Shown one piece after another: positions 1,086-23,232 of a stretch of DNA of 24,000 bases. Under the pieces are notes generated by a model. It did no database searches. It was given only the letters and a program-made list of their open reading frames with translations, and was not told the DNA's origin. Numbering within the stretch: position 1 is the first letter of the stretch; each line of letters starts with the position of its first letter. Location: NCBI RefSeq assembly GCF_017356015.1, contig NZ_JAFIQV010000004.1, forward strand, positions 210,954 through 234,953. The letters run 5' to 3'. Origin of the DNA: Azospirillum sp. SYSU D00513. GTDB lineage: Bacteria; Pseudomonadota; Alphaproteobacteria; Azospirillales; Azospirillaceae. The position numbers were made by a program, and so were the translations under genes.

Positions 1086-1859
1086 TCAGAAGGGTGCGAT
1101 GATGTCGAACAGCTGCTGGCCGTAGCGCGGCTGCTGGACGTCGGAGATGTGGCCGCGGCCGCCGTAGGAGATCCGGGCCTCGGCAATTTTTTCATAGCTG
1201 ATGGTGTTCTGGGCGGTAATGTCTTCCGGGCGGATGACGCCGGTGATGACCAGGTCGCGCCGTTCGTAGTTCACGCGGACCTCCTGCCGGCCCTGGATCA
1301 CCATGTTGCCGTTGGGCAGGGTCTGGGTGACCAGCGCCGCGACCTTCAGCTCGATCTGCTCCTGCCGGTTGATGGCGCCCCGGCCGGTGTTGGCCGTCGT
1401 GCTCGACATGTCGATCAGGCTGGCCGGGTTGGCGTCGGGCAGCAGGGTGCCCAGCCCGCCGGGGCCTTCCAGCCCGAACATGCCGGGGATGCCCAGCGAT
1501 TCCGAATTGTCGCGGCCGCGCGTGCTCTGGTTGTTCAGCCGGGCCTGGTCGTCGATCTGGATGTTCACCGTCAGGATGTCGCCCACCTTGGCGGCGCGCT
1601 GGTCCTTGAAGAAGGCCTTGGCCCCCGTCCGCCACAGGGAGTTCGGGTTGCGTTCGGCCGGCAGCGGGGTCGGCATCGGCAGGCTGATCGGCTGGTAGCC
1701 GGCGGCGGCCTGCGGGTCCTGAATCTGGGTGAGCTGCGGGCCGGAGCCGATGTCGGCCACGCGCGACACGGCGTTGCAGGCGGGCAGGCCCGCGGCGACG
1801 GCGGCGAGGAGAGCGAAGCGGGCGGCGTGGCGAAGCGCTGGCATCCGGCGGGCGGTCAT
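1086..1859 (-). CDS. flgH: flagellar L-ring lipoprotein FlgH
   Basis: Lipobox GLPAC after the signal peptide. Typical FlgH core (LWRTGAKAFFKDQRA.KVGDILTV.I...; VALVTQTLPNGNMVIQG..EV.VN.E...L.ITGVIRPEDI...NTI.S..IA.ARISYGG.G). RBS GAGGAGAA upstream. Last gene of the flgFGAH order. Confidence 0.93.
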   Translation of the reverse strand: MTARRMPALRHAARFALLAAVAAGLPACNAVSRVADIGSGPQLTQIQDPQAAAGYQPISLPMPTPLPAERNPNSLWRTGAKAFFKDQRAAKVGDILTVNIQIDDQARLNNQSTRGRDNSESLGIPGMFGLEGPGGLGTLLPDANPASLIDMSSTTANTGRGAINRQEQIELKVAALVTQTLPNGNMVIQGRQEVRVNYERRDLVITGVIRPEDITAQNTISYEKIAEARISYGGRGHISDVQQPRYGQQLFDIIAPF

Positions 1860-3497: not shown

Positions 3498-4220
3498 TCA
3501 GACGGAGCGGCCGAGCCGCTGGATGGCGGTGCGCATGCGCTCGTTCTCGCTGTCGATCAGCTTCTGGGCCGACTGGTACTGGCGCTGCACGTCGATCATC
3601 GCGGTCATCTCCGAAACGGGCTTCACGTTGGAATTCTCAAGCAAGCCCTGTGCCACTTTCGTGTCCACCGGTGCCGGCTGCGGCTCCTCGTCGCTGACGT
3701 AGAGGCCGGCGCCGACCTCGGTCATCAGCTGCTCGTTGGGGAAGGTGACGATGTTCAACCGGCCGACCGGGCCGAGTTCGGTGGAGATGGTGCCGTCGCC
3801 GGCCACCTTGATGTCCGTGGTGCCGGCGGGGATCGTGATGGGCTGTCCGTTGTCGGCCAGCACGGGCAGGCCGCCCTGGTCCACCACCTGCCGCTGGTCG
3901 TTCATCTGGAAGCTGCCGGCGCGGGTGTAGCGGGGGCCGTTGACCGTATCAACCGTGAAATAGCCGTTGCCGGTGAGCGCCAGGTCCAGCGGGTTGCCGG
4001 TCTGGGCGAGATGGCCGGTGGAAAGGTCGCGCACCACCGCGCGGTCCTGCACGAAGCTCACCTTCTCGTGCAGGCCGGGGCGCTCCACGAACTCCGTGAA
4101 CAGCATGCGCTGCTGCTTGAAGCCCGTGGTGTTCATGTTCGCGACGTTGTTCGAAATGACGTCGAGCTGGCGGCGCAGGGTCATCTGGCGCGACAGGGCG
4201 ACGTAGATCGGGTTTTCCAT
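3498..4220 (-). CDS. flgF: flagellar proximal rod protein FlgF
   Basis: From ATG at 4220 the product starts MENPIYVALSRQMTLRRQLDVISNNVANMNTTGFK and ends LENSNV.PV.EMT.MI...R.Y, which are rod-family motifs. The ORF-track start at 4373 adds 51 non-conserved residues that overlap the promoter region. Confidence 0.9.
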   Translation of the reverse strand: MENPIYVALSRQMTLRRQLDVISNNVANMNTTGFKQQRMLFTEFVERPGLHEKVSFVQDRAVVRDLSTGHLAQTGNPLDLALTGNGYFTVDTVNGPRYTRAGSFQMNDQRQVVDQGGLPVLADNGQPITIPAGTTDIKVAGDGTISTELGPVGRLNIVTFPNEQLMTEVGAGLYVSDEEPQPAPVDTKVAQGLLENSNVKPVSEMTAMIDVQRQYQSAQKLIDSENERMRTAIQRLGRSV

Positions 4221-4276
4221 CGGCGGCCTCTCAGGATCTGTGCCGGCGGAGCCTTTCCGTCCGGCACCCATCCCTA

Positions 4277-4292
4277 TGCAGCCGCCGTGCCA
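4277..4292 (-). promoter_or_regulatory. candidate sigma-54 (-24/-12) promoter for flgFGAH
   Basis: The minus strand reads TGGCACGGCGGCTGCA, against consensus TGGCACG-N4-TTGCA. There is one mismatch (C for T at -14) and the GG-N10-GC spacing is correct. The -12 element is about 55 nt upstream of the flgF ATG (4220). Confidence 0.5.
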
Positions 4293-4365
4293 GTCCAGGA
4301 TCGGCGCCATTTTCCCGAGCCTACCCGGAAGAGTTGGGGCGAACGGGACCCGCTGGTGCCGGCCG

Positions 4366-4427
4366 CCGGGCAAAAGCTGCCGCCGGCCCGGAAAAGATCA
4401 CGGGCGGCGCCCGGCAAGAAGCTCCCG
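4366..4427. promoter_or_regulatory. two related GGCAA-AAGCT-CCG repeats; candidate enhancer (bEBP/FlbD-type UAS)
   Basis: CCGGGCAAAAGCTGCCGCCGG (4366-4386) contains the imperfect palindrome CGGGCA-N5-TGCCGC. GCCCGGCAAGAAGCTCCCG (4409-4427) is a related copy. The centres are about 44 bp apart and lie about 85-130 bp upstream of the sigma-54-like promoter, relative to minus-strand transcription. Confidence 0.3.
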
Positions 4428-8750: not shown

Positions 8751-9491
8751 ATGAGTCCCACCGGCGGTTCCTCCGGCAAGGCAGCGGCCAGCGGCCTGCC
8801 CCCTCTCCGCCATGCCGGCCTCCAGTCCGCCGGCATGGGGCCGGGCGCGGGTGCGGGATCCGGCAATGGCGGCCTGCTGCTCCTGCTGTCGCTGTTCCTG
8901 CTTCTGCTCGTCTTCTTCATCGTGCTGAACGCCCAGACGATGCAGGCGCCGCAGCGGGTGAGGGCGGTGATGGCCTCGCTCGACCGCAGCTTCCCCTCCT
9001 TCATCATCGACCCGCGCCTGCGCGACGGCGCCGATCCGCTGGCCTCGCGCGCGGGCACCGTCTTCGCGGCGGAGCGGCTGGCCGCGGTCGGCGACCTGTT
9101 CGCCGCCTCCATCGCCGTCGCCAAGACCGAGATCGTCGGGCCGGGCCACCGGCTGGAGGTCCGCCTGCCGGCCGACGAGCTGTTCGTGCCCGGCACGGCG
9201 GCGCTGCGCCCCGACCGCCAGGGGCTGATCGACCGCGTCGCCGAGGCCCTGCGCGACCCGCGCCCGGGCGAGCGGCTGGAACTGGACGCCCTGCTGGCGC
9301 TCGGCCCCGCTGGCGGCCCGTCCGGCGGCCCCGCCCATCCCCCCGGCCCCGTCGCCCGCGCCGGCGCGCTCGCCCGCCTGCTGGTGGAGACCGGCGCCCC
9401 GGCGGAGGGCGTCACCATCGGCATCGAGCGCGGGGAGCCCGGCGCCGTGCGGCTGCTGTTCAGCCCGCGCGACGCGGAGGCGCGCCCATGA
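8751..9491 (+). CDS. membrane-anchored OmpA/MotB-like protein (degenerate)
   Basis: RBS GAGG. Leu-rich TM helix (LLLLLSLFLLLLVFFIVLNA) with no conserved Asp. The C-terminal half resembles an OmpA_C/MotB peptidoglycan-binding domain (LEVRLPADELFVPGTAALRPDRQGLIDRVAEAL ... RAGALARLLVETG). Confidence 0.55.
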   Translation: MSPTGGSSGKAAASGLPPLRHAGLQSAGMGPGAGAGSGNGGLLLLLSLFLLLLVFFIVLNAQTMQAPQRVRAVMASLDRSFPSFIIDPRLRDGADPLASRAGTVFAAERLAAVGDLFAASIAVAKTEIVGPGHRLEVRLPADELFVPGTAALRPDRQGLIDRVAEALRDPRPGERLELDALLALGPAGGPSGGPAHPPGPVARAGALARLLVETGAPAEGVTIGIERGEPGAVRLLFSPRDAEARP

Positions 9492-10207
9492 TCCGCCTGC
9501 CGCACAACCCGCCGGGCCTGACGCGCCCGGCGAAGGCCGGGCTGGACGCCGAGGCCGCCCCGCCGAAGTCGCTGTGGCTGATCAGCCTGACCGACCTGAT
9601 CTCGCTGATGCTCGCCTTCTTCGTGCTGATGTATTCGATGAGCGAGCCGCTGACGGCCGAGGGCTCGAGCGGGCTTGCCAAGGTGCTGATGTCGGCGCGC
9701 TCCACCGCCTTGGCGCCGTCCAGCGCCGCGCCGGAGCCGAAGGCGGCCTTCAACGCGCAGGCCGTCGAGGCGGACGGCACCATCGACCTGGATTACCTGC
9801 ACGCGCTGCTGCGCAGCCAGACCGGCCAGGATCCGGAGCTGTCCGGGCTGTCCGTGCGGCGCGAGGACGACCGGCTGGTGATCGGGCTGCCCGGCGCGCT
9901 GATGTTCGACGCGCCCGGCGGCGCCTTCTCCGACCGGGGGCGGCGCGTGCTGTTCCTGCTGGGCGCCGCCGTCGGGCGCATCGGCAACCGGATCGAGGTG
10001 GTCGGCCACGCGGAGGGCGAGGAGGGTGCCGACGGCCACGCCTGGGAGCGCTCCCTGACCCGTGCCGTCGCCGTCGCGGCGGCCCTGCGCGAGACCGGCT
10101 ACCGCCGCGACCTCGTGGCGCGGAGCGTCATGGCCGCCGGGACGGGAATGGGCGCCAGCGCCGGACCGCGCGTGGACGTGGTCGTGCGCGACGAGGCGGA
10201 GGGCTGA
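9488..10207 (+). CDS. MotB-like stator/OmpA-family protein
   Basis: The ATG overlaps the upstream stop (ATGA); RBS GGAGG. The N-terminal SLWLISLTDLISLMLAFFVLMYSMS resembles the MotB TM segment with its conserved Asp. The C-terminus is OmpA-like (LVIGLPGALMFD.....FSDRGRRVL..LG..V....NRIEVVGHAEG...WERSLTRAVAVAAALRETGY). Confidence 0.7.
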   Translation: MIRLPHNPPGLTRPAKAGLDAEAAPPKSLWLISLTDLISLMLAFFVLMYSMSEPLTAEGSSGLAKVLMSARSTALAPSSAAPEPKAAFNAQAVEADGTIDLDYLHALLRSQTGQDPELSGLSVRREDDRLVIGLPGALMFDAPGGAFSDRGRRVLFLLGAAVGRIGNRIEVVGHAEGEEGADGHAWERSLTRAVAVAAALRETGYRRDLVARSVMAAGTGMGASAGPRVDVVVRDEAEG

Positions 10208-10212
10208 CGGCC

Positions 10213-13200
10213 ATGGCGGGACGCGCATCGCACCGGCGCTGGCTGCGCGGCCTGATGGCCGCCACGGCCCTGTGCACCGCGCTGGGCGGAGGCCTCCTGG
10301 CCGGCGCGCCGCAGGCCCATGCCGCGACGGTGCCCGTGCGCGCCGCCACCCACCCGACCTACGGGCGCGTCGTGTTCGACTGGCCGGAGCGGGTCGGCTT
10401 CACCGCGCGGGTGGAGGGCAGCAGCCTGATCGTCGCCTTCGACCAGCCCATCGAGGCGCCGGTCCAGCGCGCCGTGTCGGCTCTGCCCGGCTACCTGTCC
10501 GGCGGGCGGATCGCCGCCGACGGCAAGACGGTGGAATTCACCCTGAAGCGGCCGGTCGAGTTGAAGACCTTCCGCAGCGGCAACGGTAACCCCATCGTCA
10601 TCGACCTCCTCCCGACGAAGGACGCGCCCGGGGAGGCTCCCAAGGAGGCGGCTCCGCCCACCGCACCCCAAACCCCAGCTCAAGCCCAGCCGGCCAGGCC
10701 CGCCGCCGGGACGGTGACGGTGCAGGGGAACGACGACGCGACGCACAGCCGCATCGCCTTCAACTGGCCGGGGCCGGTGGACTACACGGTCAAGCGCGAC
10801 GGCAGCGCCGTCACCGTTCTGTTCGACCGGGCCGCGCGGGCCGACCTGTCCCCCGTGGCCCGCGCCAGCCTGCGCAACATCCGCAACGTCGAGAGCTTCC
10901 GCCAGCCGGACGGCAACCTCGCCGTGACCTTCGTCGCACCCCACGGCGCCGGGCTGCGGGAAAGCCGGTCCGGCAGCGCCGTGGTGCTGGAGGTGCTGAA
11001 CACCGGAAGCCCCCCCGCCAAGCCGGCGGAGGCCGCCCAGCCGCAGCCGCAAGCACCGGCACCGGCACAGCCGCAGGCCCAGACGGCCGCCGCGGCCCCC
11101 GCCCCGCAGGCACCGCAAGCACCGCTCCCGGCGGCGCCGGGCCGGGCCACGGCGGACAGCCGCACCACCGCCTCCGCCGCGAACGCCGCCGCCGTGGAGG
11201 CCCCGGCCCCGGCCAGGGCGCCGCAGCCGCCGGTCCAGGCCCACTTCCTGCCGGCGCCGGCCAAGGGCGAGGCCGGGCAGGGGCCGGCGCTGGTCTTCGA
11301 CGCGGGCGGCCCGTCCTCCATCGCGCTGTTCCCGCGCGCCGGGCGCCTCTACATCGTCTTCGACAAGCCGCTTCCCATCGGGGCCGGGCGGATCGTCGGC
11401 CATGGCGGCGAGCTTCTGGGCGCCATCGAGCCGGTTCCGGCGACCGGCGGCACCGCCTTCCGCACGAACATCGGCCCGATGGTCTGGCCGAAGCTCGAGC
11501 GCCAGGGCACGGTCTGGCGGATCACGCCCGCCGCCCGGCTGTCCACCGCCCCGCCGAAGGACATTCCCATCGATCCGGAGCCCGACTTCGTGCTGGGCGC
11601 GCGGCTGCTGGCGCGGGCGCCGGACGCCGCGGCGGTCGTGCAGCTCGTCGATCCGGACATCGGCGACCGGCTGCATGTGGTGCCGCTGCCGGTGCCCGGA
11701 TCGGCGGTGCTGGACCCGCACCGCTACGCCGACCTGGAGGTGATGGCCTCCTACCAGGGCGTGGTCGTGCGCCCCATCGCCGACGGGGTGAGCGTCCGCC
11801 CGGTGAAGGAGGGGGTGGAGCTGGCCGCCGCCGGCGGCCTGCACCTGTCCCCCACCGCCGATTCCGGTCGGCGCCCCAGGGAGGCGGCCCCGGCGGAAAC
11901 GGCCCTGGCGCAGGCGCCGGCTTCCGGATCGCCGCCCTTCCCGGCGCCCGGCGGCGCCTCGGCCGGGCCGGGCGCTCCGCCGGGCGCCGCGACGGGCAAG
12001 GGCGGGCAGCCGCCGCGCCTGTTCGATTTCGCCGCCTGGCAGCGCGGCGGTCTGGACCGTTACACGGAGAACCGGCAGGAGCTTCAGCTCGCCGCCGTCA
12101 ACGCCCCCGATTCGGAGCGGCCGAAGGCGCAGCTCGACCTCGCGCGCTTCTACCTCTCCCAGGGTTTCGCGCAGGAGACGCTGGGTCTGCTCGACGTGCT
12201 GCGCCAGAACCAGCCGGACCTCGATGGCCGGCCGGAGTTCCTGGCCCTGCGGGGTGCGGCGCGCGTGCTGGCCGCCGACCATGAGGGCGCGGCCAAGGAC
12301 CTCGGCGACCCGGTGCTGTCCAGCCATCCGGAAACGGCGCTGTGGCGCGCCGCCAGCGCCGCCGACCTTGCCGCCGACAAGGACGATTGGAAAACGGCGC
12401 TCGACGGCTTCAAGGCGGGCGGCGCGATCCTGGCCCAGTATCCCGAGCCGATCCTCGGCAAGCTCGCCCTGCGCGCGGCGGAGGCGGCCCTGGAGTCCAA
12501 GGACCTTCCCTTCGCCAAGCGCATGCTCGACCGCGTGATCGAGCGCGCGGGCGAGGAGGGGCTGGACCGCCCCGAGCTGCAATATCTGCGCGGCCTCTAC
12601 CACATGCAGACGGAGGAGCCGAAGCCGGCGCGCGAACAGCTCCAGGCCGCCTACGACAGCCTCGACCGCCTCTACCGGGCCAAGGCCGGGCTGGCCCTGA
12701 CCGAGCTGGAGCTGGCCGAGAAGACCATGTCGCCCTCCGCCGCCGCGGAGCGGCTGGGCGGGCTGACCGTCACCTGGCGCGGCGATGCGCTGGAAATGAA
12801 GATCCGCCGCCGCATGGGCCAGGCGCTGATCGAGGCGGGCCAGTACGCCGAGGGCTTCAAGACGATGAAGGAAACGGCGACGCTCGCCGCTGGCACGCCG
12901 CTGGCCGAGGAGATCGCCGGCGACATGACGCGCATCTTCGGCGACCTTTACAAGGACGGCGCCGCCCACCTCTCCACGCTCGACGCGCTGGACCTCTACG
13001 ACCAGTTCCGCGAACTGACCCCCGTGGGGGAGCCGGGCGACGAGATCGTCCGCCAGCTCGCCGAGCGGCTGATCCAGGTCGATCTGCTGAACCGCGCCTC
13101 CGACCTTTTGCAGCATCAGGTGGAATACCGCCTGTCCGGCCCCGAGAAGGCGCGGGTCGGCACGCGGCTGGCCTCTGTCCGGCTGCTCGACAACAAGCCG

Positions 13201-13731
13201 GAGCAGGCGATCCGCGCGCTGGAGCTGTCGAACATCCCCGGCATCCCGCCGGAGCTGGCCGCGGAACGCCGGCTGATGCAGGCCAAGGCGCTCGCCGAAC
13301 TCGGCCGGGGCGAGGAGGCGCTGCTGCTGCTGGCCGAGGACGACAGCAAGGCCGCCGAGCTTCTGCGGGTGGACATCGCCTGGAGCGGCCAGAAATGGGA
13401 ACCGGCGGCCTTCGCGCTGGGCAAGGTCATCGGCCCGCCCCCCGCCGCCGGCACCCCCATCGAGCCCGGCACCTCGCAGCTCGTCCTCAACCGCGCCGTC
13501 GCCCTGGCCCTGGCTGGCGACGGCACCGGCCTGAACCTCCTGCGCCGCGACTTCGGCCCCGCCATGACCACCGGCCCCGACGCCGACGCCTTCCGCGTCC
13601 TGACCCGCCCCGAACAGGCCCTCGGCCTGATCGACGTGAGCACCGTGCGCTCGCGCGTGGCGGAGGTGGATATTTTCAAGGAGTTCCTGAAGGACTACCG
13701 GGCGAAGAATGCGGGCGCGCCGGGGGCTTAG
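10213..13731 (+). CDS. large secreted AMIN-repeat / Pro-Ala-Gln linker / TPR-like protein (1172 aa)
   Basis: RBS GGAGGG. Signal peptide ending AQAHA-AT. Two AMIN-like modules (..THPTYGRVVFDWPERVGFTARVEGSSLIVAFD....IVIDLLP and ..ATHSRIAFNWPGPVDYTVKRDGSAVTVLFD....VVLEVLN). Long P/A/Q low-complexity linker. The C-terminal ~650 aa are helical and repeat-rich (TPR-like). The ORF-track start at 9574 is an out-of-gene extension overlapping the previous CDS. Confidence 0.7.
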   Translation: MAGRASHRRWLRGLMAATALCTALGGGLLAGAPQAHAATVPVRAATHPTYGRVVFDWPERVGFTARVEGSSLIVAFDQPIEAPVQRAVSALPGYLSGGRIAADGKTVEFTLKRPVELKTFRSGNGNPIVIDLLPTKDAPGEAPKEAAPPTAPQTPAQAQPARPAAGTVTVQGNDDATHSRIAFNWPGPVDYTVKRDGSAVTVLFDRAARADLSPVARASLRNIRNVESFRQPDGNLAVTFVAPHGAGLRESRSGSAVVLEVLNTGSPPAKPAEAAQPQPQAPAPAQPQAQTAAAAPAPQAPQAPLPAAPGRATADSRTTASAANAAAVEAPAPARAPQPPVQAHFLPAPAKGEAGQGPALVFDAGGPSSIALFPRAGRLYIVFDKPLPIGAGRIVGHGGELLGAIEPVPATGGTAFRTNIGPMVWPKLERQGTVWRITPAARLSTAPPKDIPIDPEPDFVLGARLLARAPDAAAVVQLVDPDIGDRLHVVPLPVPGSAVLDPHRYADLEVMASYQGVVVRPIADGVSVRPVKEGVELAAAGGLHLSPTADSGRRPREAAPAETALAQAPASGSPPFPAPGGASAGPGAPPGAATGKGGQPPRLFDFAAWQRGGLDRYTENRQELQLAAVNAPDSERPKAQLDLARFYLSQGFAQETLGLLDVLRQNQPDLDGRPEFLALRGAARVLAADHEGAAKDLGDPVLSSHPETALWRAASAADLAADKDDWKTALDGFKAGGAILAQYPEPILGKLALRAAEAALESKDLPFAKRMLDRVIERAGEEGLDRPELQYLRGLYHMQTEEPKPAREQLQAAYDSLDRLYRAKAGLALTELELAEKTMSPSAAAERLGGLTVTWRGDALEMKIRRRMGQALIEAGQYAEGFKTMKETATLAAGTPLAEEIAGDMTRIFGDLYKDGAAHLSTLDALDLYDQFRELTPVGEPGDEIVRQLAERLIQVDLLNRASDLLQHQVEYRLSGPEKARVGTRLASVRLLDNKPEQAIRALELSNIPGIPPELAAERRLMQAKALAELGRGEEALLLLAEDDSKAAELLRVDIAWSGQKWEPAAFALGKVIGPPPAAGTPIEPGTSQLVLNRAVALALAGDGTGLNLLRRDFGPAMTTGPDADAFRVLTRPEQALGLIDVSTVRSRVAEVDIFKEFLKDYRAKNAGAPGA

Positions 13732-13874: not shown

Positions 13875-14237
13875 ATGTCTGCAAAGGGTGGCAGGTTGAA
13901 GAGCAGTCCCAAAGTGTGCAGTACGGGACGCTATGATCTGACAGACGCGCATTGGGAGCGGCTGAAGCCGCCTCTTCCTCCGGAACGTGCGTCAACCGGG
14001 CGACCGAGCCACGGCCACCGGTGCATGATCAATGGGATTCTGTGGATCGCCCGCACGGGCGCGCCCTGGCGTGACTTGCCGGAACGGTACGGCTCGTTCG
14101 GCACGGTTTCGAGTTGGTCCTATCGCTGGCGCAAAGCCGGCATTTGGCAGCGCGTCCTGGAAGCGTTGCAGGCCAGTGCCGACCGTCGGGGCCAGGGTCG
14201 GAGCCCCATACTCCCATTCGAGCCCAGCGGAGGATAA
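13875..14237 (+). mobile_element. IS5-family (IS427/IS1031-group, DUF4096-type) transposase OrfA fragment, truncated
   Basis: RYDLTDAHWERLKPPLPP....GRP....R.MINGILWIARTGAPWRDLPERYGSFGTVSSWSYRWRKAGIWQRVLEAL is the typical N-terminal module. Similarity ends near 14200, and no DDE domain follows. Confidence 0.75.
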
Positions 14238-14239: not shown

Positions 14240-14594
14240 TGTGCCGCTAATATCCCGAGGCTCAATTCCAATTGAACTGCACGCCACAAATTGACGATTA
14301 TATGGAAACGCACAACCTTGGCAAATAATTTAGTGTAAAAGATGAAATAAATCATCAATAAACTAAGAATTTACATTTGACTTCCCCATAGCATTTAGTG
14401 AAAACTTTCTAGTATTACCTGCGCGTGTGCATATAAAAGCAAAAAATATTAACTTTTTAACCAAACTAGTGTAAGTCGGTGGCGATCATACGGACGAATG
14501 CAAGCATGAGGTTTGAAAGTTGGGCACGGCATCTGGACGTTTGAAGAGAGATGCTTTATACCAACTCCAGATGATCAATTAAGCGGTATTCCAA
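14240..14594 (+). promoter_or_regulatory. very AT-rich leader/promoter region of the island operon, with repeated ATTTAGTG motif
   Basis: About 355 bp of non-coding DNA; a sampled line is about 28% G+C. The exact 8-mer ATTTAGTG occurs at 14328-14335 and 14393-14400, and the related CTAGTGTAA at 14466-14474. There are several TTGAC(G/T) and TATAAA-like hexamers, but no pair with convincing spacing. Confidence 0.3.
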
Positions 14595-15992
14595 ATGCTT
14601 GCCTTGCAGCCTCAGCGCGCTACGCCAGAACAGTTGCCGATTATCAGCAGTAGGGCAACCGGTGTTGAAATCCTCAGGGGGGCTGCTGGTAGTGGCAAAA
14701 CGACAACAGCAATACTTCGCCTTGAGTCGCTCGCGTTCACCTTTTCTGAACGAATTCAACGGCTCAAATTAGGGCGTCCGGTCAAAATCCTTGTATTAAC
14801 GTATTATCGATCGCTTGCAGGATATGTAGAGGAGCTTGCACGTACTCAGCTTCGTTCTGCTCCTGGGATAGAAGTCCAGGTATCAACATTTGCATCCTGG
14901 GCTCGATTAGGTCTTGGCAATGTACCTATTTTAAACGGAGATACGCAGAGGAATTGGGCGTTACACTTCTGTCGCGGCATTCCTCTTCCTAGTGAGTTTC
15001 TTTTAAATGAGATAGATTATGTAAGAGGAAGATTTAGTCGTGAAAATTTAGAGCATTATGTAGACGCGGATCGCACCGGTCGTGGATCAACACCTCAAGT
15101 TCTGCGGACGTTGCGTCCTCAGATCATCGCTGCAATACAACAGTATGAGAAACATCTACTTGATAATGGAAAGGGATGCCATGATTGGCATACTCTTGCA
15201 CATGATATGAAAAATATGGACAGCTTGCAATACGACATCGTGATCGTTGATGAAGCTCAGGACTTTTCTGCAAATCAACTGCGCGCAGTTATAAAGCACC
15301 TTGCGGAGCCACATTGCCTTACGCTAGTGATTGATACTGCACAGCGCTTGTACCCACGTGGATACACGTGGAGTGAAATCGGCATACGCAACGCGCGCTA
15401 TCATAGGTTGGAAGAGAACCATCGAAATACTGTCGAAATTGCATCTTTTGCTGCAGGTATTATCGATGGCATCCCCCTTGATGACGACGCCACTTTACCC
15501 AATATTGCAGCGCTGTCCCGGCATGGCGATAAGCCTTTAGTGTTGCGCGGGTTCTACAGTGATCAATTAGCTTTCGCTCTTAGGTGGGTGCAAGACCACG
15601 TGGATCTAGAAAAGGAGTCAGTCGCCTTCTTAAAGCCAATGGGTGGTAATTGGTTTAGAGATGTAAGGACTGCACTTGCTGAAAGGGGCATTGATTTTAT
15701 AGAGTTAACACAAAATCGCGAATGGCCACAAGGAAAAGAAAACGTTGCGCTTTGTACAATGCATTCCGCTAAAGGACTCGAGTTTGATCATGTGATAATG
15801 CTCGGGTTAAATGCTGAAAACCTGCCACATGGTGAGGGCTCTGACGATGACACGCTGCTTAGTAAGCGACGCCTTCTTGCCATGGCCGCTGCAAGAGCTC
15901 GGAAAACTGTTATGGTTGGATACAAGCCAGATAGAGCATCTGACCTTATAGAATTCTTCAAACCAGGTACGTTCAAAACTCTTGACGTGTGA
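14595..15992 (+). CDS. minimal SF1 (UvrD/Rep-like) DNA helicase, 465 aa
   Basis: Walker A GAAGSGKTTTA. Motif II IVIVDEAQDF. Motif III-like VIDTAQRLY. Motif IV-like LEENHRNTVEI. Motif V CTMHSAKGLEFDHVIMLG. Motif VI-like RRLLAMAAARARKTVMV. An in-frame stop at 14580-14582 fixes the ATG at 14595 as the first start. Confidence 0.85.
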   Translation: MLALQPQRATPEQLPIISSRATGVEILRGAAGSGKTTTAILRLESLAFTFSERIQRLKLGRPVKILVLTYYRSLAGYVEELARTQLRSAPGIEVQVSTFASWARLGLGNVPILNGDTQRNWALHFCRGIPLPSEFLLNEIDYVRGRFSRENLEHYVDADRTGRGSTPQVLRTLRPQIIAAIQQYEKHLLDNGKGCHDWHTLAHDMKNMDSLQYDIVIVDEAQDFSANQLRAVIKHLAEPHCLTLVIDTAQRLYPRGYTWSEIGIRNARYHRLEENHRNTVEIASFAAGIIDGIPLDDDATLPNIAALSRHGDKPLVLRGFYSDQLAFALRWVQDHVDLEKESVAFLKPMGGNWFRDVRTALAERGIDFIELTQNREWPQGKENVALCTMHSAKGLEFDHVIMLGLNAENLPHGEGSDDDTLLSKRRLLAMAAARARKTVMVGYKPDRASDLIEFFKPGTFKTLDV

Positions 15993-16678
15993 GATCGCAA
16001 ATGGTCAATAGCATGAAGCCACCTGTTGAAAGTATAATTGCGAGTCGAGGTATTGAAGAAGTTTTGCATTTTACAACAAACAACGGATTCGTGGGATGTC
16101 TTGAAATGGGAAGTGTTTTGTCAAGATATCGCCTTCCAAATGAAAAGCACTTATCGTACATCATGGCGCCTACTGCTGATAGAGAAGAAGGAAAGGAATG
16201 GTTTGATAAAACAGAGAATTGGCTGGACTATGTCAATATGTCTGTATCTGAGATAAATTATAGGTTCTTTAGCTTTGCGCAGAGGCGACATCATGGATCA
16301 GACAGGTGGTTTTTGATATTATCATTTTCCTCAGAAATTCTGACTCATGAAAACGTATATTTCACGACTACGAATAATATATATGTTCCTTATGTAAAAA
16401 GAGCACGACATGGGCAAGGATTAGAGGCCATGTTTGCTCCTAATATACAGCGTAAAGCTTCTTGGTATGCTAATCGTGCCCGTCGTGCCGAACGACTTAC
16501 AACCTGTGAGCAGGCTGAGGTACTTTACCCATGCCAGCTTTCGTTAGACTATCTCATGAGGGTCTACGCTCGGACTGAGGACGAAGCTGATCACGCCGCT
16601 GGCTGTTTACGCAGATATCAGCGTTCAAATGTTGCAGTCCTTCTAGATCCGTCTAAATTCGACGGTCAGCCGAACTAG
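15989..16678 (+). CDS. DarT-like (DUF4433-like) ADP-ribosyltransferase, divergent; 229 aa from GTG 15989 (alternative ATG 16001/16013)
   Basis: Compared by eye with Thermus DarT as I remember it. EVLHFTTNNGFVGCLEMGSVL matches IYHITHIDNLKGILRMGKLL. DYVNMSVSEINYRFFSF matches DYVPFYFCPRSPMLY. ILSFSSEILTHENVYFTTTNN matches LVSS..AV...GLPFVFTDRH. CEQAEVLYPCQLSLDYLMRVY matches RRQAEFLVRYRIPWSLVEEIVV, which carries the catalytic Glu. Not verified by a profile search. Confidence 0.5.
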   Translation: MRSQMVNSMKPPVESIIASRGIEEVLHFTTNNGFVGCLEMGSVLSRYRLPNEKHLSYIMAPTADREEGKEWFDKTENWLDYVNMSVSEINYRFFSFAQRRHHGSDRWFLILSFSSEILTHENVYFTTTNNIYVPYVKRARHGQGLEAMFAPNIQRKASWYANRARRAERLTTCEQAEVLYPCQLSLDYLMRVYARTEDEADHAAGCLRRYQRSNVAVLLDPSKFDGQPN

Positions 16679-16699: not shown

Positions 16700-18397
16700 G
16701 TGCCCGATGTCGATACCGCCGTCACCAATTCCGCATTGTGGGCGGCCGCCGGCGATGCGCTTGGCTGGATAGCTGAATTAACAGATGAGGCAGGTTTGAT
16801 TCGACGCATCGGCAAAGGTCGGCTATGCCGACCAGTCAGCTGGCGGCGAAAAATCGGAGGTATGAATGGTGCGACGGTTCAACTCCCTGAAGGGACGTAC
16901 TCCGATGATACACAGCTCCGAATAGCGGTTTGCCGTTCAATTCGCGGAGATGGATCGTTTGATACAGAAGCATTTGCTAAAATCGAATTACCAGTATGGC
17001 TGAATTATTCACTCGGCGCGGGGCGAGGAACTAAAGCTGCAGCCACGAACCTTTCCAAGCGTGATGTCAGTTGGTACTCCAACTTTTTCACTGGTGGCAA
17101 TGGGCGTGGCTACGTCGACGCGGGCGGAAACGGAGCCGCTATGCGCATACAGCCGCATGTATGGCAAACTGGTGGCAGTGCTAAACGGAGTTATCTGGGA
17201 AACGTTATTCGAGATGCTGTCGTTACTCACGGCCATATGCGAGGTATACTTGGAGCGGTATTTCATGCGGACTGTGTAGCATATGCGCTTAGAGAGGGAC
17301 GTGTGCCCTCTCCTGAGTCTTGGGAGGAATTCATTGAAGACGGCTTCCGGTCAGTAAAGAGTGCGCTCGAATCGGATCCACAGCTTAGTAGATTTTGGTT
17401 AAGCTCATGGGAGGCGGAGAGCCAGAAGCCTTTTGGCCATGCAATCGAAGCAACGATAAATGAAGCAAAGCAATTATTGCGCCGTCTTTCTGTTGCTATA
17501 GAAAGCCCGTCCTTCGATGCATACGTCAGGGTTTTAGATGCATTAGACATGCGGTCAGAAGAGCGACGTGGCGCTGGCCTCCATTCAGCGTTAGCTGCAG
17601 TTTCAGCTGCATGGCTATATAAATATGATCAGATCGAATTTGCGTTAGTTGAGGTTGTGAATGTTATCGGCTCTGACACTGATACAATTGCAACAATGGT
17701 AGGAGCTATTCTCGGCGCGACCAGCAATCATGCTCCTGAATGGCCTATTCAGGATCATGCATATATTGTCGCACAAGCCCAAAGGCTTGCGCGTATAGCC
17801 AAGGGGGCTTCAGAAGAAAGTTTCCCTTATCCTGACCTGTTCTCTTGGCAGGCTCCCACTACGCAAAGTGATGGAGTGGGTAAAATTGAGGATGGTCTCG
17901 CTATCGCTGGTCTTGGGAAAATAGAAGTGTTTGGGGAGAGGTGGATTTCAGGGAATTTTTCATGGCAATGGGCGCGTCTTCCATTTGGTCAAACTGTTCT
18001 ATGTAAAATGAAATCGGAAATGGCGGGGGTGGTTCCGGCTTATAATCTTCCGCCCTTAGAGCAAGGAAAAAGTAGGTCGGCATCTAAGTCTCAAGATGCT
18101 GGCGTGCTGCATCAGGAAAAGTTGCCGCTTAATGTAAGTGAGCATTTTAAGAAAGAAGAGTTGGATCTCCGGAGTCTGCCAAACGCAGCATTAAGTCATA
18201 ACGGACGATTGCAGAAAGGAAGGACGCTTGATATGATAACTGATGAGGTCATAAGAAATAACTTTGATGAGCGAGTTATTGGGGTGTGTTTTCTGGAGTG
18301 CCTAAATTCTGAGGAGGGTATTGAACGGGCGATGGCATTTTCTGCTATTCTTGCAAAAGCTCATCTTGCTCGAAACAGAAGAAATAGCAGACGTTAG
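16700..18397 (+). CDS. ADP-ribosylglycohydrolase (ARH/DraG family) with ~190-aa uncharacterised C-terminal extension, 565 aa
   Basis: GTG start 5 nt after GGGAGA. ARH signature motifs are present: AAGDALGW (nt 16751-), GTYSDDTQL (SDDT at 16901-16912), GGNGAAMRI, and GSDTDTIATMVGAILGA (DTDT at 17675-17686). Residues ~375-565 match nothing I recognise. Confidence 0.85.
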   Translation: MPDVDTAVTNSALWAAAGDALGWIAELTDEAGLIRRIGKGRLCRPVSWRRKIGGMNGATVQLPEGTYSDDTQLRIAVCRSIRGDGSFDTEAFAKIELPVWLNYSLGAGRGTKAAATNLSKRDVSWYSNFFTGGNGRGYVDAGGNGAAMRIQPHVWQTGGSAKRSYLGNVIRDAVVTHGHMRGILGAVFHADCVAYALREGRVPSPESWEEFIEDGFRSVKSALESDPQLSRFWLSSWEAESQKPFGHAIEATINEAKQLLRRLSVAIESPSFDAYVRVLDALDMRSEERRGAGLHSALAAVSAAWLYKYDQIEFALVEVVNVIGSDTDTIATMVGAILGATSNHAPEWPIQDHAYIVAQAQRLARIAKGASEESFPYPDLFSWQAPTTQSDGVGKIEDGLAIAGLGKIEVFGERWISGNFSWQWARLPFGQTVLCKMKSEMAGVVPAYNLPPLEQGKSRSASKSQDAGVLHQEKLPLNVSEHFKKEELDLRSLPNAALSHNGRLQKGRTLDMITDEVIRNNFDERVIGVCFLECLNSEEGIERAMAFSAILAKAHLARNRRNSRR

Positions 18398-18460
18398 GGT
18401 CCATGGTTAATAAAATTCCAAAAGGACATTAGAAAACTCGACAGAGGAATAAGATATACG

Positions 18461-18487
18461 GGATGCAGGGTTGTGATGCCTGCATCC
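18461..18487 (+). terminator. hairpin, candidate intrinsic terminator of the island operon
   Basis: GGATGCAGG-gttgtgatg-CCTGCATCC forms a perfect 9-bp stem, 63 nt after the ARH stop, followed by ATTATCTTCC (moderately T-rich). Confidence 0.5.
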
Positions 18488-18605
18488 ATTATCTTCCAAC
18501 AACCAAATTAGGTATGTTCACCGGATTGCCGGAACTGGTGTTGCAGCATCACGCGCTTGGCGTATTGATGGATGTGAGCTAATAGGTGTTGCGACGCAAA
18601 GCCCG

Positions 18606-19078
18606 ATGTGGGTCAAGGTCATGATGACGCGCCGCGGCCGACATTGCCTGAACTTGGAGGATAAAGACACGCTGGCTCGGGCGCCACCGGATCGTATCGC
18701 AGCGCTCAGAGCGAAACTGGGACAGCCGCCGAAGACGCCGAACAAATCCAGCCTGCTGTCGGCCGTTGCGTTCGAAGCAAGCCTAGAAGCCTGCGGCTAC
18801 GCGAGAACTTGTCCCCGGCCCCACTACACTAACAACTGCCATGGTATGTGTGCGCCCGCTGTTCTTCGGACATCATGACCCATGGCCAAGTGGATCACCA
18901 TGCCTACGACCACGTTGTCCTGCTGACGATTCTGCCTGACGTGACGCGGCCCCAGATTTTCGGCCGGTGCTGTCCCGACTCTCGGCTGCGGGTGCGTGCG
19001 GAGCGCTCCCGACACCATACCGCTAAGCTCGCCCTTTCGCCCACCTATTCTGACGATGGTGGCCCATCGCCATCATGA
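18606..19078 (+). pseudogene. IS66-family transposase N-terminal remnant, frameshifted and truncated
   Basis: Frame 1 gives RIAALRAKLGQPPKTPNKSS (IS66 LGxPPKTPxNSS motif). Frame 2 gives HAYDHVVLLTILPDVTRPQIFGRCCP (IS66 zinc-finger-region motif YDH.E.P.I.PDVTR..L.GG.CP). No DDE domain follows. Confidence 0.45.
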
Positions 19079-19358
19079 ACACGCAATAAGCTATGAGCGG
19101 CTGCTCCTATTATGGCCAAGCTTTTCAGGCCGCGTATGAACGCAGTGTAATCGGTAAAGTTTTCGGCGAAAATGGCTGTATGTCTGAGTATCTCATTACT
19201 GGTGCGTTCAGCAGGGCTAAGCCAAGACCCATTAGGCCTGCTTGTCCTATGTGCAGAAAGATGTCGAGTGTGTTATTATCGACAGCAAGCGTCACTTCTT
19301 ACCAGCTTGGGACGTCCATTGTCGTCGAGGGACGACCAGGGGAATCGCTTGAACGGTT

Positions 19359-19673
19359 TCAGGCTGGTTGGCGGATAACGGCCTCCAGGTAATCGCTGTT
19401 CCATGATGCCTTTTTGCGTTGAACGGCGAAGCTCTGCTTTCCCGGAGCGGCGCGCAGCAGGTTCATGGCCATGTGGCGCAAGACGGCCATGTTCTGCGGC
19501 CCGCGGTCGGAGCGGAGGCGGCAGAGGTCGTCATGAAAGACGACGTCCATCACCCAGTGCAGGCCGTTTTCCACGTGCCAGTGGCAGCGTACGGCATGGG
19601 CGAACAGCCGCGCGTCAAGAGGGGCGGAGGACAGGAACTGCACGAGCAGCGCGACCGGCTCGCTGCCGCCCAT
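19359..19673 (-). pseudogene. ISAs1-family transposase, C-terminal ~100 aa only
   Basis: FAHAVRCHWHVENGLHWVMDVVFHDDLCRLRSDRGPQNMAVLRHMAMNLLR....K.S...KRKKASWNSDYLEAVI matches the ISAs1/H-repeat C-terminal signature (HW.IEN.LHW.LDV.F.ED..R.R......N.A.LR..ALNLL). The N-terminal ~280 aa are missing, and the fragment abuts the EamA gene. Confidence 0.8.
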
Positions 19674-19685: not shown

Positions 19686-20549
19686 TCAGCGGGCGAAGCG
19701 TTTGGCCCCGGCCACGCAGGCCACGACCGCTCCCGTGACGGCCACCATCGGCCAGCCGACAGTTTCGCCCAGCAGGGTCGCGGCGAGCGTCAGGCCGAAG
19801 AAGGGCTGGAGGAGCTGCAACTGCCCGACGGCGGCGATGCCGCCCAGCGCCAGGCCGCGGTACCAGAACATGAAGCCGATCAGCATGCTGAACAGGCTGA
19901 CATAGCCGAGCCCGATCCAGGCGCCCGTCCCGATGGCGGCCCAGGAGCGGGGCAGGGTGCCGAGCATCAGGGGCAGCATGACGGGCAGGGACAGGACCAG
20001 CGCCCAGGAGATCACCTGCCAGCCGCCCAGCCGGCGCGACAGCCGGGCGCCCTCCGCGTAGCCCAGGCCGCAGAGCAGGATGGCGGCGAGCATCAGCGCG
20101 TCGCCGGCCAGCGAGGCGGTGCCGCCCTGGAACAGGGCGAAGCCGGCGACCAGCAGGCTGCCGCAGCCGGAGAAGAGCCAGAAGGCCGGCTTGGGGCGCT
20201 CGCCCCCGCGCAGCACGCCGAACGCCGCCGTCGCCAGCGGCAGCAGGCCAATGAAGACCAGCGAATGGGCCGAGGTGACGTGGCGCAGCGCCAGCGCCGT
20301 CAGCAGGGGGAAGCCCACCACCACGCCGCCCGCCACGACGATCAGGGGCAGGAGGTCGGCGCGGTCCGGCCGGCGGACGCGCAGGGCCAGCAGCAGGGCC
20401 AGCGCCAGCAGTGCGGCGATGGAGGCGCGGGCGACCGTCAGGAACAGCGGCTCGAAATCGGCCACGGCGGCCCGCGTGGCGGGCAGGGAGCCGCTGAAGA
20501 TCAGCATTCCCAGGAAGCCGTTGACCCAGCCAACCACCGATCGGTCCAT
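19686..20549 (-). CDS. EamA/DMT-superfamily transporter
   Basis: About 10 predicted TM helices in a two-EamA-repeat architecture (GMLIFSGSLPATR...; GYVSLFSMLIGFMFWYRGL). ATG at 20549 is preferred over TTG at 20576. Divergent from a MocR regulator. Confidence 0.85.
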   Translation of the reverse strand: MDRSVVGWVNGFLGMLIFSGSLPATRAAVADFEPLFLTVARASIAALLALALLLALRVRRPDRADLLPLIVVAGGVVVGFPLLTALALRHVTSAHSLVFIGLLPLATAAFGVLRGGERPKPAFWLFSGCGSLLVAGFALFQGGTASLAGDALMLAAILLCGLGYAEGARLSRRLGGWQVISWALVLSLPVMLPLMLGTLPRSWAAIGTGAWIGLGYVSLFSMLIGFMFWYRGLALGGIAAVGQLQLLQPFFGLTLAATLLGETVGWPMVAVTGAVVACVAGAKRFAR

Positions 20550-20679
20550 CGTCGCTCTCCGCCGCGCGCGGCCCAATGGCGGCCTCTGTCGCCCGCCTTA
20601 TCGCGCGGCGGGCCATGGCCTTTCCAGGGACAGTCCATTACAGTTTGCCCGAACTGTCATGCTCCGGGGAGCGGTACGG

Positions 20680-22098
20680 ATGGACGGGTCGGGCGTCGCG
20701 GGCGTGGAGCTTTCCAGTGGGGAGGGCGGCACGCTGGTCGAAAGGGTCATGATGGCGATCCGGCAGCGGATCGCCGGGCGCACGCTGGCGCCGGGTGCGA
20801 AGCTGCCTTCCATCCGCGCCTTCGCGGAGGCCGCGGGCGTGTCGAAATCGACGGTGGTCGAGGCCTACGACCGGCTCGCCGCCGAGGGGGTGATCCAGCC
20901 CAGGCGCGGCTCCGGATTCTATGTGGCCGGCCACGCGCCGCCCCTGACGCTCGCCGACCTCGGCCCCCGGCTGGACCGCGCCGTCGATCCGCTCTGGATC
21001 TCCCGCCAGTCGCTGGAGGCGGGGGAGGAGGTGCTGAAACCCGGCTGCGGCTGGCTCCCGGCTTCCTGGATGCCGGAGGAGGCGATCCGGCGGAGCCTGC
21101 GGTCGCTCGCCCGCTCGCCCCAGGTCGGCGTCACCGACTACGGCCCGCCGCTCGGGCTGCCGGCGCTGCGGCAGCTCCTCTGCCGGCGGCTGGCCGAGCG
21201 TGGGATCGAGGCGGGGCCGCAGCAGATCATGCTCACCGAATCAGGCACGCAGGCGATCGACCTGCTGTGCCGCTTCCTGATCGAGCCCGGCGACACGGTG
21301 CTGGTGGACGATCCCTGCTACTTCAACTTCCACGCCATGCTGCGCGCCCACCGGGCGACCGTCGTCGGCGTGCCCTACACCCCCGCCGGGCCGGACATCG
21401 AGCGCTTCGCCGCCGCACTCGCGGAGCATCGCCCGCGCCTCTACATCACTAACGCCGCCCTCCACAACCCGACCGGCGCGACGCTGGCGCCCGCGGTGGC
21501 GCACCGGCTGCTGAAGCTCGCCGAGCAGCACGGGCTGACCATCGTTGAGGACGACATCTTCGCCGACTTCGAGCCGGAGCCGGCGCCGCGCCTCGCCGCC
21601 TTCGACGGGCTGGAGCGGGTCATCAGCATCGGCAGCTTTTCCAAGACGCTGTCGGCCGCCATCCGCTGCGGCTACATCGCGGCGCGGCCCGACTGGCTCG
21701 AGGGGCTTCTCGACCTGAAGGTCGCCACATCCTTCGGCAGCGGCCCCTTCTCGGCGGAGCTGGTGCTGGCCCTGCTGAAGGACGGCACCTACCGACGGCA
21801 TGTGGAGGGGTTGCGGCAGAACCTCGCCCGCGTCATGGGGGAGACGGCGCGGCGGCTGCGGGTCGCCGGGCTGACGCCCTGGATCGAGCCGCGCGGCGGC
21901 ATGTTCCTGTGGTGCGGCCTGCCCGACGGGCTGGACGCGGCGGAGATCGCGCGGCGGGCCTTGGCCGAGGGGGTCGTGCTGGCGCCCGGCAACGCCTTCA
22001 GCCTGTCGGGCTCGGCGGGCCGCTTCCTGCGCTTCAACGCGGCGCAGTCGCGCGACCCGCGCGTCTTCGAGGTGCTGGAACGCGCGATGCGCGGGTGA
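20680..22098 (+). CDS. MocR/GabR-type GntR-family regulator with aminotransferase-like (PLP fold type I) domain
   Basis: wHTH segment (AIRQRIAGRTLAPGAKLPSIRAFAEAAGVSKSTVVEAYDRLAAEGVIQPRRGSGFYV), then a class-I aminotransferase-like domain (YITNAALHNPTGATL, SFSKTLSAAIRCGY). The start is ambiguous between 20659 and 20680. The ORF-track start at 20080 is an extension antisense to EamA. Confidence 0.88.
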   Translation: MDGSGVAGVELSSGEGGTLVERVMMAIRQRIAGRTLAPGAKLPSIRAFAEAAGVSKSTVVEAYDRLAAEGVIQPRRGSGFYVAGHAPPLTLADLGPRLDRAVDPLWISRQSLEAGEEVLKPGCGWLPASWMPEEAIRRSLRSLARSPQVGVTDYGPPLGLPALRQLLCRRLAERGIEAGPQQIMLTESGTQAIDLLCRFLIEPGDTVLVDDPCYFNFHAMLRAHRATVVGVPYTPAGPDIERFAAALAEHRPRLYITNAALHNPTGATLAPAVAHRLLKLAEQHGLTIVEDDIFADFEPEPAPRLAAFDGLERVISIGSFSKTLSAAIRCGYIAARPDWLEGLLDLKVATSFGSGPFSAELVLALLKDGTYRRHVEGLRQNLARVMGETARRLRVAGLTPWIEPRGGMFLWCGLPDGLDAAEIARRALAEGVVLAPGNAFSLSGSAGRFLRFNAAQSRDPRVFEVLERAMRG

Positions 22099-22102: not shown

Positions 22103-22873
22103 CTACAACGTGCCGAAGCTGCGGGCCAGCGAGCCGGCGATCAGGTACCAGCCGTCCACCAGCACGAAGAAGATGATCTTGAAGGGGATCGCCACCATCG
22201 TCGGCGGCAGCATCATCATGCCCATCGAGGTCAGGATCGACGACACCACCATGTCGATGATCAGGAAGGGCAGGAACAGCAGGAAGCCGATCTCGAAGGC
22301 GCGCTTGATCTCGGAGATCATGAAGGCCGGCACCAGCACCTGGAGCGGCGTCTGCGATTCCTCCTGCACGTTGTCGATGCGCGCCATGTCCATGAACAGG
22401 CGCAGCTCGCGCTCGTTGGTATGGCGCAGCATGAACTCGCGGAAGGGGGCGGCAACGCGCTGGAAGGCCTCCATCTCGTCGATGTCCTCGGCGATCAGCG
22501 GCTGGATGCCCTGCTCGTAGGCGCGCTCGAACACCGGCGCCATGATGAAGAAGGTGAGGAACATCGCCAGCGACACCATCACGGTGTTGGGCGGCACCTG
22601 CTGGACACCCAGAGCCGAACGCAGGAAGGACAGCACGATCACGATGCGGGTGAAGGCCGTCATCATGATCAGGATCGAGGGCGCCAGCGACAGCACCGTG
22701 ATCAGCGCCACGAGCTGGACGATGCGGCCGGTCGCCGATCCCCCGGCGTCGCCGAGGTCGAAGGTCATGCTCTGCGCCAGCGCCGGCCCGGCGGCGAGCG
22801 CGCCGGCGAGGCCGATGCCGAGCGCCAGCAGCAGGGCGAGGCCGAGCCGCCGGGGGGAGAGCGCGCCCGTCAC
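22103..22873 (-). CDS. fliP: flagellar T3SS export gate protein FliP
   Basis: The GTG at 22873 overlaps the fliO stop (GTGA). Signal peptide, then the highly conserved FliP core (SILIMMTAFTRIVIVLSFLRSALG.QQ.PPN.V..SLA.FLTFFIM.PV; PAFMISE.K.AF.IGF.LFLPFLIIDMVVSSILTSMGMMMLPP). The ORF-track start at 23161 is an extension. Confidence 0.95.
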   Translation of the reverse strand: MTGALSPRRLGLALLLALGIGLAGALAAGPALAQSMTFDLGDAGGSATGRIVQLVALITVLSLAPSILIMMTAFTRIVIVLSFLRSALGVQQVPPNTVMVSLAMFLTFFIMAPVFERAYEQGIQPLIAEDIDEMEAFQRVAAPFREFMLRHTNERELRLFMDMARIDNVQEESQTPLQVLVPAFMISEIKRAFEIGFLLFLPFLIIDMVVSSILTSMGMMMLPPTMVAIPFKIIFFVLVDGWYLIAGSLARSFGTL

Positions 22874-23232
22874 GGCTGCCTCCGGGCGCTCAGCTCGTCG
22901 GGCCGGGCGGACGCCTCGGGGTTGGGGGCGGGCGTGCTGGCCGACGCGTCGCCCAGCGCGGTGCGGAAACCGGCGCGGACACCGGATTCGACCACCCGGT
23001 CGCCGACCGGTCCCAGCAGGATCAGGTGCTCCTGGTCGTCCCGCCGCACGAGGACGAGCCGCCGCTTGGCGTCGAGCGCCAGCACCTCGACCACGCCCAG
23101 CCGGCGCTGGCGCGCGTTGGAGCCCATCATGCCGCCGAAGCCGACGCGGCGCAGCAGCCACCCGACCGCCATGATCAGGAAGATGACGAAGAGCAGGGCG
23201 GAAGCGAACTGGACATACTGTTCGAGCGTCAT
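22870..23232 (-). CDS. fliO: flagellar biosynthesis protein FliO
   Basis: The 120 aa from ATG 23232 have a single TM helix (ASALLFVIFLIMAVGWLL), then R.L.VVEVLALDAKRRLVLVRRDDQEHLILLG, which is typical of FliO. Immediately upstream of fliP. Confidence 0.7.
   Translation of the reverse strand: MTLEQYVQFASALLFVIFLIMAVGWLLRRVGFGGMMGSNARQRRLGVVEVLALDAKRRLVLVRRDDQEHLILLGPVGDRVVESGVRAGFRTALGDASASTPAPNPEASARPDELSARRQP

Follow-up and report, generated by a model that had tools for sequence, protein, structure and literature searches.

The window analyzed here is a stretch of 24,000 nucleotides from contig NZ_JAFIQV010000004.1 of Azospirillum sp. SYSU D00513, and the open reading frame (ORF) at positions 15989-16678 of its forward strand very probably encodes the toxin of a DarHTG anti-phage cassette (DarH, DarT, DarG3), which was horizontally acquired by Azospirillum. 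As judged from the sequence and the predicted structure, the assignment of the product to the DarT family of ADP-ribosyltransferases (ARTs) is real. The gene lies between a helicase gene and a gene for an ADP-ribosylglycohydrolase (ARH):

14595-15992, forward strand: DarH, a UvrD/Rep-like superfamily 1 (SF1) helicase of 465 aa (Pfam UvrD_C, UvrD-helicase, AAA_19)
15989-16678, forward strand: DarT, the predicted ART toxin (Pfam PF14487, structure prediction and Foldseek, residue conservation)
16700-18397, forward strand: DarG3-type antitoxin, a predicted ARH of 565 aa (Pfam PF03747, E = 1.9e-35)

Using a DarT profile, we collected 62 species-level genome loci. In about 58 of the 62, the genes follow each other on one strand in the order helicase, DarT, and ARH with a C-terminal extension; the others are decayed copies or lie at contig ends. 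Thus, DarT is strictly linked, in fixed order, to a UvrD-like helicase that lacks the 2B domain and to an ARH-fold hydrolase. No conserved fourth gene was found across the 62 loci (the commonest flanking family occurs in five of them), and the neighbours include integrases, recombinases, and regulators. The hosts belong to at least eight phyla, including Alpha-, Beta-, Gamma-, and Deltaproteobacteria, Acidobacteriota, Chloroflexota, Verrucomicrobiota, Planctomycetota, Spirochaetia, Bacteroidota, and Saccharimonadales. A search of phage records with DarT gave no match, and the cassette is rare on plasmids (seven records).

With an enterobacterial cassette from these loci as the query, the three genes were detected in 21 of 5426 complete genomes of E. 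coli, where they are annotated as "3'-5' exonuclease", "DarT ... family protein", and "ADP-ribosylglycohydrolase family protein" (WP_000699006.1, WP_000151475.1, and WP_001087212.1, respectively). The Azospirillum proteins can be aligned to them over the full length, with 47, 47, and 43% identity for DarH, DarT, and DarG3, and the lengths are close (465/465, 225/221, and 565/561 aa, Azospirillum/E. coli). A system with this composition, DarHTG (Liu-DS3) of E. coli, has been described (Nucleic Acids Res 2026, PMC13069673). In that study, DarH is a UvrD-like helicase without the 2B domain, and DarG3 is an ARH-fold antitoxin similar to archaeal and eukaryotic ARHs; the system defends against T4, T5, T7, and SSL_2009a, and the phenotype resembles abortive infection. 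Mutations of the DarT active site and of the DarH ATP-binding site abolished defence, whereas DarG3 mutants could not be made (PMC13069673). DarHTG was reported to be most abundant in Thermodesulfobacteriota and Bacteroidota (PMC13069673), both of which have members among our 62 loci. The Azospirillum locus corresponds to this system gene for gene, i.e., in the gene order, the 2B-less UvrD-like helicase, DarT, and the ARH-fold antitoxin; it differs in the host, a high-GC alphaproteobacterium versus E. coli, and in an identity of ~45% to the E. coli cassette. Therefore, we assign the locus to DarHTG, as a further copy of the published system, and we infer from the architecture that Liu-DS3 and the E. 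coli cassette found here are the same. No other paper describing a helicase-DarT-ARH system (under the names DarT3, DarG3, or DarTG3) was found in the literature searched; the apparent "DarT3" in a preprint on V. cholerae DarTG turned out to be citation superscripts, not a protein name. It should be noted that in E. coli AR_0128 (NZ_CP021722.1; locus L063, 10078-13980) the cassette lies inside an island rich in insertion sequences (IS) and integrases, and adjoins a gene on the opposite strand for a 1300-aa "P-loop NTPase fold protein", which could be a defence gene.

Counted from GTG 15989, which overlaps the stop codon of DarH (GTGA), the DarT product is 229 aa long; the start in the NCBI record is ATG 16001, which gives 225 aa. 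As far as the sequence goes, the choice between the two starts is uncertain. Residues are numbered below from GTG 15989, and the NCBI number is the GTG number minus 4. A first-pass annotation, made from the nucleotide sequence alone, had delimited this same ORF and pointed out four DarT landmarks, all of which were found where it had placed them: LHFTTNNG (residues 26-33), YRFFSF (residues 91-96), VYFTTTNN (residues 123-130), and CEQAEVLY (residues 173-180). The His and Glu codons that it had singled out were verified as H27 (CAT, 16067-16069) and E177 (GAG, 16517-16519).

At the sequence level, the match to the DarT family is far beyond chance. The Pfam DarT profile (PF14487 / DUF4433) was matched with E = 5.8e-16 and 59.3 bits (gathering cut-off, 22.5 bits) over profile positions 2-197 of 201. 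In a single-sequence phmmer search of the PDB, the sole match was DarT1 of E. coli C7, and it was marginal (E = 0.26); therefore, a clade profile was built from 35 DarT sequences. This profile retrieved DarT1 (8baq) with E = 1.3e-8, and DarT2 (Thermosipho DarTG) with E = 0.45; in hhalign, the probability for the clade versus DarT1 was 97.3%. The homologue search returned 913 sequences at E<=1e-3. The best 120 of the 913 have E-values of ~1e-54 to 1e-151 and, once the two closest are set aside, 44-54% identity. DarT relatives occur in Pseudomonas, Acinetobacter, Klebsiella, Sphingomonas, and many further genera; the closest one is encoded on a 12-kb metagenome contig (69% identity for DarT and 63% for the ARH). 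More distant relatives (~31% identity) are carried by the Streptomyces plasmids NZ_CP119134.1 and NZ_CP045177.1. The first-pass annotation had expected that standard annotation might call the protein hypothetical. This proved not to be the case, since the Pfam score is well over the threshold and the NCBI entry with 100% identity (Azospirillum sp. SYSU D00513) is already named "DarT ssDNA thymidine ADP-ribosyltransferase family protein". For DarT of this clade, NCBIfam offers no model, and some JGI and older NCBI records label DarT relatives "hypothetical".

The AlphaFold2 (AF2) model of DarT, built with the clade alignment, has a pLDDT (predicted local distance difference test) of 92.4 and a pTM (predicted template modelling score) of 0.90; the weak part is the loop at ~51-60, with pLDDT of ~56. 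When this model was compared to the PDB with Foldseek, there were eight matches at E<=1e-3, all of them DarT1 or DarT2. DarT1 (8baq) is at the top (E = 3.3e-11, template modelling (TM) scores of 0.71/0.77, 20% identity), followed by the DarT2 proteins of Thermus, Thermosipho, and M. tuberculosis (TM of ~0.57-0.63, 12-15% identity); the next match after the DarTs is tRNA 2'-phosphotransferase (Tpt1). In the profile and fold comparisons alike, which the first-pass annotation had named as the way to check its proposal, the best matches lie inside the ART superfamily and all are DarTs. Pfam, profile, fold, and active-site residues agree on the DarT-like ART that it had proposed.

Roles of individual residues were taken from the structural study of DarT1 (PMC11543638) and transferred through alignments. 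DarT1 residues H17, F18, R35, R52, and D54 correspond to H27, F28, R46, R65, and E67 of the Azospirillum protein, and S63, F72, N104, Q150, and E152 correspond to S85, F94, N129, Q175, and E177. Every mapped residue except F94 is kept in 120-121 of 121 relatives (H27 in 120 and E177 in all 121), and F94 is kept in 99 of the 121, with L, Y, or M elsewhere. DarT1 M71 is aligned to F93, in a column with Y or F in most relatives. The proposal that H27 and E177 are candidate catalytic residues was thus upheld, since they are near-invariant and align with DarT1 H17 and E152; the two remaining landmarks fall on functional positions of DarT1 as well, i.e., M71/F72 and N104. The neighbouring E174 is Q in 14 of the 121 sequences, so the catalytic Glu is expected to be E177, not E174. 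The least certain part of the mapping is the loop in which R52/D54 are equated with R65/E67. A profile-HMM (hidden Markov model) alignment placed R52 of DarT1 on a variable column, and it was set aside because the hhalign mapping to R65/E67 is more coherent.

The predicted active site is clearly DarT1-like, not DarT2-like. In DarT1, as compared to DarT2, Ser replaces the Tyr of the H-Y-E triad and Asn replaces His119 (PMC11543638); the clade has the DarT1 state at both positions (invariant S85 and N129), and it lacks the hallmarks of DarT2, i.e., H119 and the triad tyrosine Y71. The pair R52/D54, proposed as a proton relay for guanine-N2 chemistry in DarT1 (PMC11543638), is present as R65/E67, with Glu for Asp. 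DarT1 (DarTG1 of E. coli C7, PDB 8baq), a guanine-N2 single-stranded DNA (ssDNA) ADP-ribosyltransferase with a NADAR antitoxin, is the best match by both sequence profile and structure. The two have in common the Ser in place of the H-Y-E Tyr, the base-holding Asn, the Arg and acidic relay pair, the Phe residues stacking on nicotinamide, and the Q-A-E catalytic motif. Unlike DarT1, to which it is 20% identical, the Azospirillum protein has Glu for Asp in the relay, does not keep the guanine O6/N7 readers K74/Y75, and shares with its clade a specific 9-residue insertion with invariant F72, D73, and K74, followed by W78 (F-D-K-x3-W). The partner differs from that of DarTG1, too: it is an ARH in place of NADAR, in Azospirillum as in the 62 loci, and the system requires a helicase in addition. 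DarT2 (DarTG2 of Thermus and M. tuberculosis; PDB 7omv, 7yk3), a thymidine-N3 ssDNA ADP-ribosyltransferase with a macrodomain DarG, belongs to the same Pfam family, has the same fold and the same catalytic Glu and His, and is likewise a toxin paired with an antitoxin that is an enzyme. The distinctions from DarT2 are the low identity (12-15%, TM of ~0.6), the absence of Y71 and H119, the PF03747 protein in place of a macrodomain partner, and three genes versus two. Since the active site resembles that of DarT1, the word "thymidine" in the NCBI name is probably too specific for this clade. The base specificity is not readable from the sequence, and the target of DarT may, as the first-pass annotation had held, differ from those of DarT1 or DarT2.

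DarH contains the Walker A motif GAAGSGKTT and motif II DEAQD, and PADLOC reports GajB-like UvrD matches. It is 47% identical to E. coli WP_000699006.1 (465 aa) over the full length. Residues 216-257 of DarH align with 211-253 of Rep, and residues 374-440 align with 542-608 of Rep. DarH appears to lack the 2B domain, because ~170 aa, the size of this domain, are missing between the aligned Rep segments; we take the 2B domain of Rep to be residues 374-542. The motor also resembles HelD and HelR, which recycle RNA polymerase, at E-values similar to those for Rep, but this likeness is limited to SF1 motor motifs and is far under the family cut-offs. The first-pass annotation had recognized the hydrolase partner and had left the helicase out of the unit; the former part stands, and the latter has to be amended.

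The first-pass annotation had also held that the hydrolase partner has a fold different from those of known DarT antitoxins, and the protein is indeed an ARH, not a macrodomain or NADAR. In the AF2 model of DarG3 (pLDDT 86.8), the ARH domain spans ~1-367 and is followed by a small beta domain at ~389-438; a disordered linker (455-505) leads from there to a C-terminal bundle of three helices (510-564). In an alignment of 30 sequences, the metal-site residues are invariant, i.e., S68-D69-D70-T71, G143-N144-G145-A146-A147-M148-R149, T176-H177, and D326-T327-D328-T329. The nearest Foldseek neighbours of the ARH domain are ARH3 and the archaeal MJ1187 (TMt 0.74-0.83), and further ones are Listeria Lmo0067 (8za7), Tri1 (6drh), DraG, and ARH1. 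The extension at ~385-565 (window positions 17850-18397), of ~200 aa, has no Pfam match and is found in nearly all of the 62 loci; possibly, it docks DarT or DNA. It should be noted that the NCBI model of the ARH (553 aa) begins at TTG 16736 and drops residues 1-12. The dropped stretch holds S11, invariant in 30 homologues, and a conserved "NSAL" lead-in; GTG 16700, which is preceded by GGGAGAG, fits the homologues better than TTG 16736.

Several known pairs (DraT/DraG, Tre1/Tri1, and the Listeria Lmo0067 pair) likewise combine an ART with an ARH-fold hydrolase that reverses the modification, and the ARH metal site is conserved in DarG3 as it is in these pairs. However, the ARTs of these pairs, unlike DarT, are not members of the DarT family and modify protein arginine, and the pairs have neither a helicase component nor a C-terminal extension of ~200 aa such as that of DarG3.

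The cassette is located on a stretch of ~5 kb with a GC content of 0.40-0.53, compared to ~0.70 in the genome and the flanks, and this island is bordered by remnants of transposase genes:

13875-14237, forward strand: truncated N-terminal fragment of an IS4/IS5-family transposase (DUF4096; Pfam PF13340, E = 4.9e-26), left island border
14240-14594, forward strand: AT-rich leader with the presumed cassette promoter, at the left edge of the low-GC island (GC falls from ~0.70 to ~0.45-0.50)
19359-19673, reverse strand: C-terminal fragment of a DDE transposase (DDE_Tnp_1; Pfam PF01609, E = 1.5e-5), right island border

The island was clearly acquired horizontally, because its GC content differs from that of the genome and IS remnants lie on both sides. 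The PF01609 match covers only profile positions 148-200 of 200, and in the interval 18400-19358, between the ARH gene and the right transposase fragment, the ORFs are all short and match no family. Neither inverted nor direct flanking repeats delimiting a transposon were found, the comparison of the island DNA to plasmids gave no near match, and neither the Rfam scan nor the tRNA scan of the window returned a match. Presumably, the promoter lies in the AT-rich leader at 14240-14594; the scan for promoters and terminators performed no better than on shuffled sequence.

By analogy with characterized DarTs, we propose that DarT would use NAD+ (nicotinamide adenine dinucleotide) to mono-ADP-ribosylate a base in ssDNA. 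E177 would be the ART glutamate, H27, F28, and R46 would bind NAD+, R65/E67 would form the proton-relay pair equivalent to R52/D54 of DarT1, and the target base would be held by N129. As these residues follow DarT1 and not DarT2, an exocyclic amino nitrogen is a likelier target than thymine N3, and guanine N2 would be the first guess; a target other than guanine is quite possible. As long as the cell is not infected, the adduct would be removed by the binuclear-metal ARH site of DarG3, whose C-terminal extension might hold DarT, by analogy with the C-terminal domain of DarG2. During infection, DarH, powered by ATP, would act on the replication intermediates of the phage, either engaging them or exposing their ssDNA; once the balance is tipped by DarH, DarT would block DNA replication.

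Several points weigh against this interpretation. The link to the validated Liu-DS3 rests on the identical architecture and the E. coli homologue. The DarHTG paper reports phenotypes only, and DNA as the substrate, like the base and the atom modified, is our inference. The columns aligned with the DarT1 guanine O6/N7 readers K74/Y75 are not conserved as K/Y: one is variable (V/F) and the other is Ser (Ala in this copy), and a 3-residue indel adjoins them. A near-invariant Trp (117 of 121 relatives) is replaced by Arg at residue 100 of this DarT, and the consensus promoter scan of the forward strand gave nothing above chance. To our knowledge, the ARHs described so far act on Arg-, Ser-, or phosphate-linked ADP-ribose, and none acts on a base adduct. 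A tentative extension of our interpretation is that the DarT of DarHTG would write a nucleic-acid mark other than thymine N3 and guanine N2, and that DarG3 would be the first ARH-fold eraser of nucleobase-linked ADP-ribose, with its beta-domain and helix-bundle extension docking DarT or DNA. We consider this possible, with the balance of probability against it; the modified base would be adenine, cytosine, or else guanine as presented by the helicase.

The remaining explanations can be compared on the same evidence. The ARH-fold neighbours of DarG3 (ARH3, Tri1 6drh, Lmo0067 8za7, DraG) are protein-directed, and the DarH motor resembles HelD and HelR as closely by E-value as it does Rep; together with the missing guanine readers of DarT1, this would fit a target that is protein or RNA, given that ARH-fold partners elsewhere reverse protein ADP-ribosylation, and with an RNA or a nucleoprotein (e.g., RNA polymerase) as the substrate of the helicase-like ATPase. 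However, ssDNA is the substrate of every characterized DarT, the base-holding N129 and Q175 (a Gln contacting the phosphate of the target nucleotide) are invariant, and the resemblance to HelD/HelR does not extend beyond the motor motifs, which makes a protein or RNA target unlikely. Somewhat less likely still is that the protein is a canonical thymidine-specific DarT of the DarT2 type, modifying T in TNTC-like ssDNA motifs. The NCBI product name, the Pfam family common with DarT2, and the significant fold matches to DarT2 structures agree with it, but the name is inherited from the title of the Pfam family, and the comparisons prefer DarT1 to DarT2: the profile gives E = 1.3e-8 versus only 0.45, the structures give TM of 0.71-0.77 at 20% identity versus ~0.6 at 14%, and where DarT2 has Y71 and H119 the clade has S85 and N129, the DarT1 state, without variation. 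Moreover, there is no macrodomain partner.

It could also be argued that the cassette is a relic without activity, left in an IS-flanked island that is decaying, given the truncated transposase fragments around it, the lack of a promoter or terminator above chance, and the Arg-for-Trp substitution at the near-invariant DarT position. Conversely, the three ORFs are full length compared to their homologues, the catalytic and metal-site invariants are all intact, and the helicase-DarT overlap is preserved; besides, were the antitoxin not working, the toxin gene would soon be lost. The pseudogene or relic reading was rejected on account of the full-length ORFs that keep the invariant residues, and we consider it very improbable. 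The Arg at residue 100 (16286-16288) is also present in the closest relative, with Trp in 117 of the 121 relatives.

Within the DarHTG interpretation, the gene is not a hidden ART, and the appropriate annotation is a recognizable DarT within a published defence system. The questions that follow concern the DarHTG family generally and not the Azospirillum locus alone: (i) which base and atom are modified by this third DarT lineage; (ii) how an ARH-fold enzyme reverses the modification; (iii) why an ATP-dependent, 2B-less helicase is indispensable. The residue map of DarT (H27, R46, R65, E67, S85, N129, Q175, and E177) and the domain map of DarG3 supply concrete mutants and constructs.

The insertion site of the island lies in a flagellar gene region (FlgH, FlgF/G, a MotB-like gene, and FliP). 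The host genes around it are as follows:

1086-1859, reverse strand: FlgH, L-ring protein of the flagellar region
3498-4373, reverse strand: FlgF/G-type rod protein of the flagellar region
9488-10207: MotB-like gene, in the flagellar gene region
19686-20576, reverse strand, and 20080-22098, forward strand: island neighbours, an EamA-family transporter and a GntR-aminotransferase (MocR-like) regulator
22103-23161, reverse strand: FliP, flagellar region

Just downstream of the MotB-like gene, an ORF at 9574-13731 on the forward strand encodes up to 1385 aa, with long Pro/Ala/Gln-rich low-complexity stretches and no Pfam match from 10300 onward.

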